Assembly (NCBI GenBank): GCA_026016245.1 | Contig: CP061211.1 | Span: 134,353 to 158,352 of the forward strand | Direction: 5' to 3' | Length of the DNA: 24,000 nt | From: Candidatus Pacearchaeota archaeon | Lineage (GTDB): Archaea; Nanobdellota; Nanobdellia; Pacearchaeales; UBA284 | Part shown: positions 13,232-17,900 of the stretch, in pieces | Position numbering within the stretch: the stretch's first letter is position 1 | Layout: each line of letters begins with the position of its first letter | Position numbers and translations under genes: made by a program | The notes under the pieces: model-generated | Databases searched by the model: none | What the model was told of the DNA's origin: nothing | The model's input: only the letters and a program-made list of their open reading frames with translations

Positions 13232-13966
13232 TTATCCTTTGTAGATTATTATATTGCCTCTTCCTCTCTTGATTTTTTTAACCTTGCCTTGGTCTTCAAG
13301 GTCTGCTATCACAAGACTTGCTTTTGCTTCACTTATTCCTAATTCCTTTCTTATAGCTTTTTGCGTGACTCTTTTTTCACGCTTGAGTATTTTTAATACT
13401 GCTGTCATAACTTCATCACCTACAGGTTTTATTTTTTCTTTAACTTTTCTTTTTTTCTTTCTTTTTTTAATCTTTTTTTTGCTTTTTGATTTTCTGGATA
13501 TAAGATAGATAATAAATCCTATAATTGTGATTGCAATAATTATTCCTATAATCAACCAGATATTAACTTTTGATCTTTCTTTTAACAAATCTTCAATCAT
13601 CTTAAGTTCTGATTCATCAAATTCAAGCTCTTCTATGTCTAGAGTTTCAAACAAAATCAAATCAAGGACAAAATTACCTTCTGCTGGTAAAGTAATTGTT
13701 TCTTTATCATAAAGTAAAATACCTTGAGTTGAGTAAAAAGCTTCAATTTCATAAGTACCTTCAGGAACAGTGAAAGAATATGTACCATCATGAGCAACAA
13801 TGCTTTGTTTTGGGGTGCTATTTATTTCTACTATAGTTTTTATTGCCAACTCAAGATCAGGGCCATAGATACTGCCGTAAACAGTCGCAGCTTGAGCTTG
13901 TGTTAACAGAATTGTGAATAGAAAAATGAATGCAATTATTCCTATCATTCCCTTAGCCTTTATCAT
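13232..13966 (-). CDS. Membrane-anchored transcriptional regulator: signal/TM, extracytoplasmic beta-sandwich (CarboxypepD_reg-like), TM helix, K-rich linker, C-terminal winged helix
   Basis: N-terminal MIGIIAFIFLFTILLTQAQA. G-x-Y-x-F-x-V-P-E-G-x-Y-E-I pattern (DGTYSFTVPEGTYEIEAFY). TM helix VNIWLIIGIIIAITIIGFIIYLI. KSKSKKKIKKRKKKRKVKEK linker. wHTH VTQKAIRKELGISEAKASLVIADLEDQGKVKKIKRGRGNIIIY. Confidence 0.7.
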   Translation of the reverse strand: MIKAKGMIGIIAFIFLFTILLTQAQAATVYGSIYGPDLELAIKTIVEINSTPKQSIVAHDGTYSFTVPEGTYEIEAFYSTQGILLYDKETITLPAEGNFVLDLILFETLDIEELEFDESELKMIEDLLKERSKVNIWLIIGIIIAITIIGFIIYLISRKSKSKKKIKKRKKKRKVKEKIKPVGDEVMTAVLKILKREKRVTQKAIRKELGISEAKASLVIADLEDQGKVKKIKRGRGNIIIYKG

Positions 13967-14097
13967 AACATTAAAAATCGATGATGCTTTAAAAACTTTA
14001 CCAAATTTTGTGGATATAAAGCTTAAAAAAGCATTTTTTAAGTTTCTTCTGAAAGTTTATTTATAAATTAAATAAATTATACAAAATTGTGAAAAAG

Positions 14098-14109
14098 CTG
14101 GCTAGCCAG
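14098..14109. promoter_or_regulatory. Perfect GC-rich 12-bp palindrome CTGGCTAGCCAG between a TATA-like box and the first ATG of the five-gene operon
   Basis: Read directly. TATA-like tttataaatt at ~14059-14068; ATG at 14130. The palindrome is 8/12 GC in an AT-rich intergenic region. Confidence 0.45.
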
Positions 14110-14129
14110 TGCCGGCTTTCATAGTTAAA

Positions 14130-14597
14130 ATGGAACAAAACATAATAACACCCCCATACGAAAAAGAATATCTAGATATAACAGATTTAGAATATCCAGA
14201 TATAACAGATTTTGGTATCCCGATGCCTTCAAAACCTTATGAATCAGTAGAGCTTAGAGTACTTGGTAGAGAAAAGAAGATATCTCTCTTAGAAACATTC
14301 GTGAATATAGAAAAAAGATTTAGTGGATTTGTTTGGTTTAGAGAGAATGAAAAAAACGGAAGAAAAGTGACTTTACAATGTGTGAATGGTTATGTGTATG
14401 ATATTAGAGAAGAAAGTAAAAGTGTAGTGGATGATTCTGAAAACGGGGCTAGAATTTATGAAGCACTTGAATACCCAATTTTTGGATATATCAAAAAAAA
14501 TAACAAGTATGAGGGAGCCCCCAAACTAAAACCAGGTCTTCATTTAGCAAGCGTGGTAAGTAAATTAAAAAAGGCATTAGAATTTGATAAACTTTAA
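14130..14597 (+). CDS. Hypothetical protein (155 aa from the ATG), gene 1 of a five-gene operon
   Basis: The track ORF begins at GTG 14109, inside the palindrome; ATG 14130 (MEQNIITPP) is more likely. Contains a short duplicated peptide, LDITDLEYPDITDFG. Confidence 0.55.
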   Translation: MEQNIITPPYEKEYLDITDLEYPDITDFGIPMPSKPYESVELRVLGREKKISLLETFVNIEKRFSGFVWFRENEKNGRKVTLQCVNGYVYDIREESKSVVDDSENGARIYEALEYPIFGYIKKNNKYEGAPKLKPGLHLASVVSKLKKALEFDKL

Positions 14598-14617
14598 GGG
14601 ATTGGGAGAAAATTAAA

Positions 14618-15418
14618 ATGGAAATAGATGAAATAAATCAAGAAGCAATAAATTTAGATGAACTTTTAGGGAAAGGGGAGATTAAGAAAGAAGAGATAGA
14701 TAGGCAGATTCAAGAAATGGAGAAAGAACCACAAAGAATTTTTTACAAACATGAAAATTTGGATGAAATTGAAAAGAGTGTTGAATCTGAAGAAGAGGAT
14801 CCTACTTGGGGAGGACCAGTAATCCAAAAACCAAAAAAAGAACTAGAAAGAATAATGTTTTGGTTTTCTGATAAGTTAAAAGTTGAGGATCATGAATTCG
14901 AGGCTCTGAGAAGATTGTTTAGATATAAGGGGGTGGGTACATTTCTGATTTATAAACGAGAGATATGTGATAGTTTTTCAAAAATATACAAAAGAAAACC
15001 AGAAGAAAAAATCCCTATTGCTGTACTTGGTGATCAAGATATCCTTAGTGAACAAGAGATTTATAATTTTTTAAATGAAAAAGATAATGAAGCAATTTAT
15101 GTGCTCTTGAAATATGAGAATCCTAGACAATTTCTGAGAGAATTTAATAGATATTATCAAAAAACAGGTATTGAGATAAGAGTTAAGAGTATTAGAGAGG
15201 AAAGAAGATGTGAGGGTAATTTTGAGGAGGAAAATAAAAAGATAAGAGAAGAGATAGAATTAATTGGTGATAAGAGTATTATTGACCTTGATAAAACTAA
15301 AAAAAAGCCAAAAAAAGATTTTGTTGAAGAAATTCTAAATGAAAATGTTAGTGAGATTGAAGATATATTTGGAGATAAAAAAAGTAAATCAGATTCAGAT
15401 AGAGTGAATTATATTTAA
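14618..15418 (+). CDS. Hypothetical acidic protein (266 aa)
   Basis: ORF with GGGAG ~10 nt upstream. Highly acidic N- and C-terminal regions flank a central region that looks globular. No motif recognised. Confidence 0.6.
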   Translation: MEIDEINQEAINLDELLGKGEIKKEEIDRQIQEMEKEPQRIFYKHENLDEIEKSVESEEEDPTWGGPVIQKPKKELERIMFWFSDKLKVEDHEFEALRRLFRYKGVGTFLIYKREICDSFSKIYKRKPEEKIPIAVLGDQDILSEQEIYNFLNEKDNEAIYVLLKYENPRQFLREFNRYYQKTGIEIRVKSIREERRCEGNFEEENKKIREEIELIGDKSIIDLDKTKKKPKKDFVEEILNENVSEIEDIFGDKKSKSDSDRVNYI

Positions 15419-15419
15419 A

Positions 15420-16421
15420 ATGGTAGATGAAAAGAAAGAGACAAGTAGACCAAATATCCCTGGATTTCAAACAGAAGAAGAGTTATTAGCAGAGATGCTT
15501 GGTGGTGCAAATGTTAAGAGACATACAGTGACACGTTATGAAAAGAAAATTCCTATGAGCAGGGAACAAATAGAGAGTCTAAATTTAGCAGCTTCTAAAT
15601 TAAGTAAATTATGGCCAGGATATGAAATAGAGACTTCTTTTCGCGATTCAGTTAATGTAAGTACTGGCTATGGAATGAGTGAAGTAGTACCTGCCACTTC
15701 CTACTTTACTAAATGGAAGGGAAAGCTGACCCAAGATAAATTAAGCATTGGTTATAATGAAGAAAAAAATATTGGAGCTATAAAATTTGAAGCTGATGGT
15801 AACAGAGAAATAAGAGATACAGGAGTTTATTATTTATCCAATGTCATAAATCTTATTGTTTTTAAAGGACGTAGGTTGGATGAGTCTAATTTGGATAGGT
15901 ATACAAATCCCCTCATAAAAGAAGCTTTAGAAATTTTAAGAAAAGATCTTGAACCAGTAAGGACAAACAGAACAATTCAACAAGTAATAGAAAATACAAA
16001 AATAGATGAGCCTGAGAGATTAAAGTGCGAACCTAAAAAATTTGATTTTTTGGGGGAACTAGGAGACTTGGTTGGATATATGGATAATCTTGTTGCAGAG
16101 AAAGGTGGGTTTGCTGGCATGAGCATAGTTGATCAGCAATATGAGGCTCCTGACAACAAGAATGCTGGAGAAATTATTATTAAAAAGAGATCTGAAATTT
16201 CAGATTTTGTTGATAAGTATCAATTAAGTGAGTTAGGTGCAATAGCCAAAGGAGCGATCATTATTAATGCTCTTCTTGAAAGCAGGATAGATGAAGCTCT
16301 AGCTCTTGCTAAGTATCTTCCTGATAACTATAAAGAAAAAGTTTATTCAATTGTTGAGGATATCCAACAGAATTATTCTCAAAATAATAAATTAAATCAA
16401 AACAACTTGAAAGGGGGTTAA
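15420..16421 (+). CDS. Hypothetical protein (333 aa)
   Basis: Starts 1 nt after the previous stop. Non-repetitive composition. No motif recognised. Confidence 0.6.
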   Translation: MVDEKKETSRPNIPGFQTEEELLAEMLGGANVKRHTVTRYEKKIPMSREQIESLNLAASKLSKLWPGYEIETSFRDSVNVSTGYGMSEVVPATSYFTKWKGKLTQDKLSIGYNEEKNIGAIKFEADGNREIRDTGVYYLSNVINLIVFKGRRLDESNLDRYTNPLIKEALEILRKDLEPVRTNRTIQQVIENTKIDEPERLKCEPKKFDFLGELGDLVGYMDNLVAEKGGFAGMSIVDQQYEAPDNKNAGEIIIKKRSEISDFVDKYQLSELGAIAKGAIIINALLESRIDEALALAKYLPDNYKEKVYSIVEDIQQNYSQNNKLNQNNLKGG

Positions 16422-16424
16422 AAA

Positions 16425-17312
16425 ATGAAATTTATAGCTTTATTAATGGCCCTTGTTTTAGTAATTGCAATGCTTCCTTCAACTTTTGCTGTTGGAGTAA
16501 AGCCTATATGGACAACTGAAAGTGTTAAAAGTATAAGAGAGAAATTTACAGAGCAGAGCACTTTTAGAGAACAAATCAAGCAGCAGATTCAGGATTGTAA
16601 AGACAGGGAGGATGAAGAGTGTATGGCTATAAAAGAGGCTGCTCAACAACTTACAAAAAATATTCTTTTGAGAGTATGTTCAAGAAGTGAGGATATTTTT
16701 GAGAGGTTTGAAGATAGGATAGAGAAGGATCCAAAACTGACTGAGGAAGAGAAAGATGTATTGAAAGAATCTCTACAGAACCAGAAAGACCAATTAGAAG
16801 AGATCTGCGAAGATATTGAAGATGCAGATGAAGAAAGACTTAAGGAAATTGTTGCAGAGATTAGGGCCTTGATAAAAGGAACTCATCTGAAATTTAGGAT
16901 TGCAAGAAAACTTGTCCTTTTGCATAGAATGGGCTTGATTATTGAGAGGGCTGAACATCTTGAAACAAAACTAGATGATTTTATAGAGAAATGGAATTGT
17001 ACAAATACAACCAACATAGATCCTCTTGTAGAACAATTTAACAGCCAGATAGCAGAGGCAAGAGAATCTTATAATGAAAGCAGAGATTTATGGGGCCAGT
17101 TTATAGAAACTGTACAAAATCATGAACCAGACACTGAAATACTTAGAGAAGCTCAGTCAAAGATGCAAGAAGCTCAGTCAAAGCTAAAAGAAGCTCATAA
17201 AACTCTTAAAGAAATAATTCAGGAATTAAGAAAGTGTAGAGAAGCTAGTGGAGAGGAAGAAGAGCCTGAAGAAGAACCAGAGGAAGAGGAAGAAGAGGAG
17301 CCAGAAGAGTAA
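16425..17312 (+). CDS. Secreted coiled-coil, Cys-containing acidic protein (295 aa)
   Basis: Signal peptide MKFIALLMALVLVIAMLPSTFA. Long helical charged regions and a duplicated EAQSK(M/L)(Q/K)EA motif. C-terminal EEEEPEEEPEEEEEEEPEE is encoded by a ~65-nt purine tract. Confidence 0.65.
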   Translation: MKFIALLMALVLVIAMLPSTFAVGVKPIWTTESVKSIREKFTEQSTFREQIKQQIQDCKDREDEECMAIKEAAQQLTKNILLRVCSRSEDIFERFEDRIEKDPKLTEEEKDVLKESLQNQKDQLEEICEDIEDADEERLKEIVAEIRALIKGTHLKFRIARKLVLLHRMGLIIERAEHLETKLDDFIEKWNCTNTTNIDPLVEQFNSQIAEARESYNESRDLWGQFIETVQNHEPDTEILREAQSKMQEAQSKLKEAHKTLKEIIQELRKCREASGEEEEPEEEPEEEEEEEPEE

Positions 17313-17320
17313 ATAAGAAA

Positions 17321-17530
17321 ATGGAATCAAGAATACTTATGATAGTTTTAGTTATTATGCTCCTCTTGACACTTTTTCTTGTTTCAGGTGCTGGTTGTGG
17401 TGAAGAAGAAGTCAGTGCAGAAAGTCTAGATTCAGAATTAAGTGATTTGGAAAGCATGAGTCAGGCTCTTAATGATTTGGAGTTTGATATGAATGAATCA
17501 GAGTTAGATGATTTAGAAGGGATTATCTAA
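17321..17530 (+). CDS. Small secreted or lipoprotein-like acidic protein (69 aa)
   Basis: Hydrophobic N-terminus ILMIVLVIMLLLTLFLVSGAGC followed by an acidic tail. The Cys directly after the h-region is lipobox-like. Confidence 0.5.
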   Translation: MESRILMIVLVIMLLLTLFLVSGAGCGEEEVSAESLDSELSDLESMSQALNDLEFDMNESELDDLEGII

Positions 17531-17900
17531 TCTCTTTCTTTTTATTTTTATAAATACCCTCAACTATCCCTTCTGCGAATTTTTTTGAATCTTTTGGGGT
17601 TGAGTCATAAAAAGAAATTTTATATTCATGAGGAATTTCACTTAATATCCCCCATAATTCATTTTTTGTTAAATCAGAAGGCAAGGCTATATATGCATTT
17701 CCTATTATATAAGCTGTAATGTCTCTGTCATTTCTAGTTCCAATAGTTTGAGGATTAAATACATGAATATCTTTTACTTTTACATCAATCCCCCTGCCTA
17801 AAGTTTCTTTTATATTCCATATCACTACTCCTTTCCAATTAAAATTAAGATCAAGACCTATCTGGATAAAATTCCGTAATTCTTCAATTAGATTTGTCAT
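17523..17900 (-). CDS. Hypothetical protein (125 aa) downstream of nrdG
   Basis: ORF starts 43 nt downstream of the nrdG stop on the same strand. No motif recognised. Confidence 0.5.
   Translation of the reverse strand: MTNLIEELRNFIQIGLDLNFNWKGVVIWNIKETLGRGIDVKVKDIHVFNPQTIGTRNDRDITAYIIGNAYIALPSDLTKNELWGILSEIPHEYKISFYDSTPKDSKKFAEGIVEGIYKNKKKEIR

Follow-up and report, generated by a model that had tools for sequence, protein, structure and literature searches.

The closest described counterparts of the locus reported here, a five-gene cluster (g1 to g5) and a divergent gene for a membrane-tethered winged helix-turn-helix (wHTH) regulator in a Candidatus Pacearchaeota archaeon, are bacterial envelope circuits. 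In the CpxP/cpxRA/NlpE system of Escherichia coli and in Spy/BaeSR, an exported all-helical protein is encoded divergently from its regulator, and a lipoprotein (NlpE in the Cpx case) belongs to the same envelope-monitoring circuit. In regulators of the ToxR-ToxS and CadC type, a membrane-tethered winged helix with an outward domain works together with a small partner that is exported or membrane-anchored and comes from a neighboring gene. The archaeal locus lies in a window of 24,000 nt, which is the whole stretch of DNA analyzed (positions 134,353 to 158,352 of contig CP061211.1, assembly GCA_026016245.1) and part of a single 710,724-bp contig. The host is a tiny-genome DPANN archaeon. DPANN archaea rely on contacts to other cells and, to our knowledge, almost nothing has been described of how they build or monitor their envelopes.

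On balance, we favor the reading that the locus is a regulator-controlled cell-envelope module with a CpxP-like logic, under whose promoter cytoplasmic genes were later inserted. The composite anatomy of this module is well supported; its function we infer. The old core would be a bidirectional unit in which a membrane-anchored wHTH regulator faces the promoter of g4 and g5. A gene for a protein of ~590 aa would have been inserted between this promoter and g4 in the family of the window and later split into g2 and g3, while the orphan gene g1 would have been added in this genome alone. Owing to their position between the promoter and g4, g1 to g3 would be co-transcribed with g4 and g5. The regulator would read a condition of the envelope or the outside via its beta-sandwich ectodomain and set transcription from the divergent promoter. 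The g4 product, exported via Sec, would be a helical scaffold stapled by disulfides that carries a polyanionic tail and has a non-enzymatic, binding or structural role outside the membrane. The g5 product would be its lipid- or membrane-anchored partner, docking through a C-terminal acidic amphipathic motif. Both may feed back on the regulator ectodomain, as CpxP does on CpxA, and g1 to g3 would represent an intracellular output of this signal that is specific to the lineage.

The feedback logic is thus our proposal, and the differences from the described systems are considerable. All protein families of the module are uncharacterised, and the locus resembles the bacterial envelope circuits in regulatory logic without qualifying as a member of any of them. 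Compared to Cpx and Bae, one membrane-tethered wHTH protein stands in place of a kinase and a response regulator, and the host is an archaeon without an outer membrane. Compared to ToxR and CadC, the topology is reversed, with a C-terminal wHTH and an N-terminal ectodomain. In addition, the wHTH is of the DUF7343/MarR-like rather than the OmpR type, and the partners are encoded divergently instead of downstream in the same operon.

The evidence for an old core comes from gene order and distribution. For the near loci, we compared the contigs around ten g4 homologs and further loci from relatives. The order in the window is wHTH (on the minus strand), g1, g2, g3, g4 and g5. One relative of the same genus (G002/L020) has wHTH, a 262-aa g2-like gene, g3, g4 and g5, and another (G001/L033) has wHTH, a 201-aa g2-like gene, g4 and g5, with neither g1 nor g3. 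Loci L017 and L019 encode wHTH, g2, a protein of 89-94 aa, g3, g4 and g5. A single open reading frame (ORF) of 580-599 aa, preceded in L023 by an 86-aa gene, is found between wHTH and the g4-g5 pair in L023, L024 and L028, and an unrelated 153-aa gene takes this place in L022. The wHTH gene is followed by g4 and g5 only in L025, and L018, L021, L034 and L035 contain g4 and g5 without an adjacent wHTH gene. Both g4 and g5 are therefore present and adjacent in every near locus. Identity of g4 amounts to 73% within the genus and 45-47% across genera; across relatives, it is 38-51% for g5, 25-48% for g3 and about 30% for g2.

A profile of g4 detected the gene in 12 of the 23 genomes of the window's family, in four out of four of a second family and in two of the 256 genomes of the order's largest family. 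Class-wide, 80 out of 401 genomes (77 of the 282 of good quality) carry g4, almost always as a single copy with most of its length matched; these genomes are related to one another, and the counts describe a pattern rather than a statistical test. We inspected 20 distant loci, in which the wHTH gene lies divergently beside g4 in 17, a g5-type ORF follows g4 in 17 (and a larger lipobox protein in an 18th), and g2 and g3 occur in none. Judged from these sequence comparisons, g4 and g5 are an old conserved pair with a divergent regulator, spread over the class.

The first-pass annotation had regarded the five genes as a single functional module. One transcription unit is indeed likely and the exported pair is a plausible envelope component, but the five genes do not make up one conserved machine, because g4 and g5 mostly occur without g1 to g3, g2 and g3 are a split gene restricted to one family, and g1 has no homolog. 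Synteny across relatives, which had been suggested as a check, extends from g2 to g5 but not to g1, which lacks homologs even within the genus. It is very unlikely, in our view, that all five proteins form one dedicated apparatus, be it for secretion, for contact between cells or for a surface structure. The very close spacing of the genes behind one promoter would fit such an apparatus, as would the finding that g2 and g3 are located solely directly upstream of g4 in every genome searched. However, most carriers have g4 and g5 without g1 to g3, including the same-genus genome that lacks g1 and g3, and g1 is unique to this genome. Moreover, no signature of an ATPase, membrane platform, pilin or secretin was found, and g1 to g3 contain no transmembrane segment. 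The secretion or surface-structure system that had been put forward has no counterpart in the genes either, as neither g1 to g5 nor their neighbors encode an ATPase, a polytopic platform or a class III (prepilin) signal peptide.

The conserved partner of the pair, the wHTH gene, is located just outside the 14130-17530 region covered by the first-pass annotation and was missed there. It encodes a protein of 244 aa with, in this order, an N-terminal signal/anchor, an extracellular beta-sandwich, a transmembrane helix, a Lys-rich linker and a C-terminal DUF7343 wHTH domain; the hydrophobic segments lie at the N-terminus and around residue 138. Regulators of relatives share 59-69% identity, and residues of both the ectodomain and the wHTH are invariant class-wide (alignment A6). 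A literature search yielded no publication mentioning DUF7343. The gene is divergent relative to g4 in all loci inspected. The wHTH and g4 profile searches of the same class sample were cross-tabulated by hand, which gave a full-length regulator in 71 of the 80 g4 carriers and, in 66 of the 80, a regulator on the same contig at no more than ~2 kb from g4.

The region between the two divergent genes contains several conserved elements (Table 1). Upstream of wHTH genes, a tandem TAAAGC motif is present in 15 of 32 homologous regions versus one of 1116 control windows. In the 710-kb genome itself, two copies were found versus 1.2 expected, so the motif is not over-represented there and the cross-locus comparison alone is significant. 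The motif could be the operator of the regulator or, read on the opposite strand, the TATA box and transcription factor B recognition element (BRE) of the wHTH gene; it could also be both. A BRE/TATA block (AAAGTnTnTTTATAAA) was found in 19 of the 32 homologous regions versus two of the 1116 controls, and it lies behind the tandem motif at a distance of exactly 35 nt, both in the window and at several other loci, some of them from other families. The leader hairpin starts 25-40 nt past the TATA box, has a conserved GCCAGT in its loop and is followed by a U-tract. Equivalents with G-U pairs and compensatory changes are present in L020, L017, L019 (-23.0 kcal/mol), L022 (-20.5 kcal/mol) and L014, and absent from L023, L024 and L025. 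The hairpin is single-copy in the genome, and hence not a genomic repeat, and Rfam returned no match for it. It could act as a leader/attenuator element or as a protein-binding site.

A Shine-Dalgarno sequence (TTGAAAGGAGGTTAAA) precedes the ATG of g4 in all loci with genes in the upstream slot, i.e., between the promoter and g4, regardless of the upstream frame; the 3′ end of the 16S rRNA reads ...GGATCACCTCC. Since this sequence is kept at the nucleotide level despite the differing upstream frames, the ribosome-binding site constrains the C-terminus of g3 and not the reverse. The LKGG end of g3 is encoded by the stretch 16407-16424. T-rich tracts were present 3′ of g5 in nine out of nine loci inspected. 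The simplest reading is that g1 to g5 probably form one transcription unit from ~14090 to ~17550, given the single conserved BRE/TATA block upstream, the Shine-Dalgarno sequence before g4 and the oligo-T tract after g5. We also considered a 26-nt inverted repeat (14016-14041 and 16418-16443, 81% complementary) that brackets g1 to g3, with its arms in the conserved upstream motif and at the g3-stop/g4-start junction. It was discarded as not significant by simulation, in which six of 30 sequences reached at least 21/26 and two of 30 the observed best of 22/26.

Table 1. Positions of the genes and predicted regulatory elements of the locus, numbered from the first nucleotide of the window.
Feature	Position	Strand	Remarks
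Membrane-tethered winged-helix regulator	13232-13966	-	Pfam DUF7343, E = 1e-13, residues 189-240
Tandem TAAAGC motif, TAAAGCTTnnnnAAAGC type	14017-14032	unassigned	Cross-locus enrichment
BRE/TATA block GAAAGTTTATTTATAAA, predicted operon promoter	14051-14067	+	Single occurrence in genome
GC-rich leader hairpin	14086-14125	+	Free energy -17.8 kcal/mol; predicted transcript 5′ end
g1	14130-14597	+	155 aa, cytoplasmic orphan
g2	14618-15418	+	266 aa, cytoplasmic
g3	15420-16421	+	333 aa, cytoplasmic
Shine-Dalgarno sequence of g4, GAAAGGGGGT	16409-16418	+	Overlaps final g3 codons (LKGG)
g4	16425-17312	+	295 aa, secreted, all-helical, acidic
g5	17321-17530	+	69 aa, acidic lipoprotein-like peptide
Oligo-T tract, probable archaeal terminator	17531-17551	+	Directly after g5 stop

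The description of g4 in the first-pass annotation (a signal peptide, six cysteines and an E/P tail) and that of g5 as acidic and lipoprotein-like agree with the sequences. The signal peptide of g4 spans residues 1-22 and is of the Sec/AxA type, with cleavage between TFA and V. The protein contains 25% D+E, a poly-E/P tail and, among its six cysteines, an invariant CX7C pair. We found 21 homologs in a first search (alignment A2). Nearly all g4 homologs have a C-terminal tail rich in D, E, S and T. An AlphaFold2 model with a mean predicted local distance difference test score (pLDDT) of 78, and 85-93 in the core, consists of the signal peptide, six helices and a disordered tail. The positions conserved class-wide are Leu, Ala, Phe and Ile packing residues, the CX7C pair (C58, C66), E109 and E177, with no catalytic-looking set among them. 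This conservation of packing residues, a Cys pair and two Glu is therefore the pattern of a scaffold or binding protein and not of an enzyme. A metal-binding reading was dropped, as His178 and His258 are conserved in the family and not class-wide.

Some g4 homologs are longer. Those at L054 (4792-6252), L055 (4366-5889) and L059 (4657-6318) have an extra C-terminal beta-rich domain that begins with a common CWEDRP...DLG(Y/F)F(I/V)WQ motif, and those at L066 and L069 have Cys-rich C-terminal extensions; no Pfam match was found for either. A DUF1542-like segment (residues ~93-161) gave weak matches in 11 out of 20 g4-family members (best E = 1.3e-6). One homolog, P0021, scores 28.8 against the DUF1542 (PF07564) cut-off of 24.3, and the window's g4 is not among the matches at E ≤ 0.05. 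The Gram-positive surface proteins with DUF1542 repeats are likewise extracellular and helical, but the g4 family has one such segment instead of an array of repeats and lacks a cell-wall anchor. PADLOC returned only coiled-coil noise for g4.

The small g5 protein has a hydrophobic N-terminus, the motif VSGAGC (Cys26) and the C-terminal end ESELDDLEGII. After Cys26, it contains 37% D+E and not a single K or R, and its invariant part is the C-terminal acidic amphipathic motif. The g5-type ORFs of the distant loci start with MKK and have a hydrophobic helix and an acidic tail with ELDxLE-like repeats. A canonical lipobox ([LVI][ASTVI][GAS]C) is present in 18 distant loci (LTGC, ISGC, LVGC and others), and the g5 of L018 and L021 has no lipobox. 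The archaeal lipoprotein lipidation enzyme AliA (arCOG02177) has been reported in DPANN “with some gaps” (PMC12462473).

These properties would also suit purely structural or cation-binding envelope parts, such as an acidic layer or an anchor from the membrane to the S-layer, that exert no feedback; the wHTH protein would then be their transcription factor or an unrelated neighbor. The strong, conserved Shine-Dalgarno sequence of g4, which suggests abundant translation, fits this alternative, as do the polyanionic tails, the scaffold-type conserved residues and the weak DUF1542 resemblance of some homologs. We nevertheless deem it unlikely: the regulator ectodomain is itself highly conserved, and the persistent back-to-back placement of the regulator suggests more than a chance neighborhood.

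The genes g2 and g3 are, as their alignments indicate, two halves of a single protein of ~590 aa that is fused in relatives. By BLASTp, g2 aligns with the N-terminal halves of the fused proteins L024_a580 and L023_b599 (alignments A3 and A4) and g3 with residues 226-576 of L024_a580 (E = 1e-22; alignments A1 and A3). The split g3 proteins start at a conserved KPNIEGF-TDEE motif; in some fused forms, this motif is part of the linker. Conservation in g3 is highest in the stretch G-x-AG...EYKAPDSxNAGEI, which contains the invariant loop EYKAPDSxNAGEI and which the AlphaFold2 model predicts with low confidence. An exhaustive HMMER search of 1.84 billion proteins with the g3 family retrieved 18 representatives, none outside the family; word-index searches for g3 found almost nothing, and no further lineage came from scanning contigs of genomes and metagenomes. 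Among the genomes searched, g2 and g3 are confined to the window's family.

In the AlphaFold2 model of one of the fused proteins (mean pLDDT 64.7), three confident modules are separated by disordered linkers. The first (residues 68-190, pLDDT 77-91) has alternating beta and alpha elements and corresponds to the g2 core, the second (residues 280-410, pLDDT about 90) has a beta-alpha-beta4-alpha2 order and corresponds to the N-terminal part of g3, and the third (residues 490-565) is a helical domain in its C-terminal part. Besides its core, g2 contains an acidic linker with a DFVxxIL motif. A Foldseek search of the Protein Data Bank (PDB) with the fused model returned nothing at E ≤ 1e-3, and three BFVD matches below 1e-3 were dismissed as meaningless (TM-score ≤ 0.13, root-mean-square deviation above 23 Å). 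Sequence profile searches of the PDB with the g4, g3 and g2 families gave zero matches. AlphaFold and Foldseek thus revealed no significant structural neighbor for g4 or for the fused g2+g3.

At the domain level, the best fold match of the g2 core is the receiver domain of CckA (6tne; probability 0.96, TMt 0.53, E = 0.04), and the predicted alternating beta-alpha domain resembles the CheY-like receiver/flavodoxin-like fold. Unlike receiver domains, the g2 family has Gly138, its only invariant residue, where the phospho-acceptor Asp after strand 3 would sit, and Pfam, including the receiver domain PF00072, gave no match in 11 g2-type proteins. With Gly instead of the phospho-acceptor Asp and no sequence match in Pfam or the PDB, g2 would be at best a pseudo-receiver.

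No homolog of g1 was found in 60 relatives, three of the same genus included, nor in the syntenic loci. Its codon usage is native, which marks it as a real gene; by our estimate, an open frame of 155 codons is very unlikely to arise by chance at 31% G+C (about 3e-6 per start). A GTG at 14109 is an alternative start and would extend the protein from 155 aa (ATG start) to 162 aa. A near-perfect 24-nt tandem duplication (14165-14212; EYLDITDL/EYPDITDF) hints that sequence was recently gained in a young gene.

The slot that holds g1 to g3 contains no gene in L018, L021 and L025, nor in most of the distant loci, where the gap between wHTH and g4 is below ~420 nt in 13 of the 17 loci with an adjacent wHTH gene. 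Elsewhere, it is occupied by g2 alone, g2 and g3, the fusion, a family of 86-94 aa or unrelated ORFs (153, 168 and 234 aa). The 86-94 aa family, which is absent from the window, comprises cytoplasmic proteins starting with MSFDV..IRK that are encoded in other genera, ahead of the fused gene or between g2 and g3 (L017:4777-5046, L019:4645-4929, L023:1605-1865).

The slot might accordingly be seen as a permissive insertion hot spot in which g1 to g3 are unrelated, fast-evolving cargo (e.g., for conflict or host interaction) under a strong regulated promoter. Its content varies between close relatives, g1 is an orphan, and g2 and g3 change rapidly, with 25-48% identity left where that of g4 is still 45-73%. 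Such an origin remains rather improbable to us, as we found neither signatures of defence or mobile elements nor significant repeats at the flanks. A g2-type domain moreover recurs in the slot in several genera, which suggests that selection has retained it. A viral, defence or mobile origin of g1 to g3 was rejected since no signature was found, and PADLOC gave no defence matches for g1, g2, g3, g5 or the fused forms.

Several observations weigh against the envelope module proposed here. About 35 genomes encode the regulator without a detectable g4, and nine encode g4 without a full-length regulator. The tandem motif could just be the wHTH gene's own TATA/BRE. The g5 proteins of the window's family, that of the window included, have a non-canonical lipobox, V-S-G-A-G-C, in which position -3 is Gly. 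Unlike CpxP, Spy and ZraP, g4 has no LTxxQ motif (LTKNI and LTEEE are present instead), and the Metal_resist family PF13801 stays below threshold (E = 0.039; 14.6 bits versus a cut-off of 29.2) and does not recur across the g4 family. Foldseek matched the g4 model to generic long helical bundles of the PDB only (E ≥ 0.39, TM-score ≤ 0.33). Finally, g2 and g3 may have a real functional tie to g4 and g5, because they are located in the slot between promoter and g4 only.

A bolder version of the favored reading, which we put forward tentatively and hold to be doubtful, is that wHTH, g4 and g5 constitute an undescribed, class-wide DPANN envelope-signalling circuit, a one-component analogue of Cpx and ToxRS that, in the window's family, has recruited a cytoplasmic pseudo-receiver (g2-g3). 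If true, the window catches a signalling module while it acquires an intracellular branch through the insertion and fission of genes. The core is found in about a quarter of the good-quality genomes of the class and has conserved promoter elements, making it a concrete candidate for envelope sensing or maintenance. The lineage of the window illustrates how lineage-new genes (a split gene and an orphan) appear to be wired under an existing regulated promoter.

Coordinates and coding scores agree with the five co-directional ORFs of the first-pass annotation, which are all on the plus strand and separated by spacers of 20, 1, 3 and 8 nt. The coding scores of g1 to g5 in their own frames are 0.42-0.51 versus a genome mean of 0.42 ± 0.08, and the alternative frames score about -1.2 to -2.2; codon usage is thus native to the genome in the annotated frame only. 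Hydrophobic segments are absent from g1, g2 and g3, and g4 and g5 have one N-terminal segment each. The view of the first three as cytoplasmic proteins without a placeable motif stands, as Pfam, PHROGs, PADLOC and NCBIfam profiles gave nothing significant for g1 to g5, the fused forms or the longer distant g4 homologs. All homologs of g4 and g3 that carry a name are from metagenome-assembled genomes labeled “Candidatus Pacearchaeota archaeon,” and the record of the same-genus relative carries the label Woesearchaeota.

Upstream of the divergent wHTH gene, methionyl-tRNA synthetase (MetRS) and a tRNA-binding protein are encoded. In L018 (5781-6000) and L021 (4982-5218), there is an opposite-strand, tRNA-like stretch, judged by eye, between the MetRS gene and g4. 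Downstream of g5, a convergent 125-aa ORF is followed by nrdG-nrdD-nrdR. This ORF (17523-17900, minus strand) overlaps the end of g5 by 8 nt and has no family match. Its sole detected relative is from the same genus (29% identity), and its position is occupied by different small genes in other genera.

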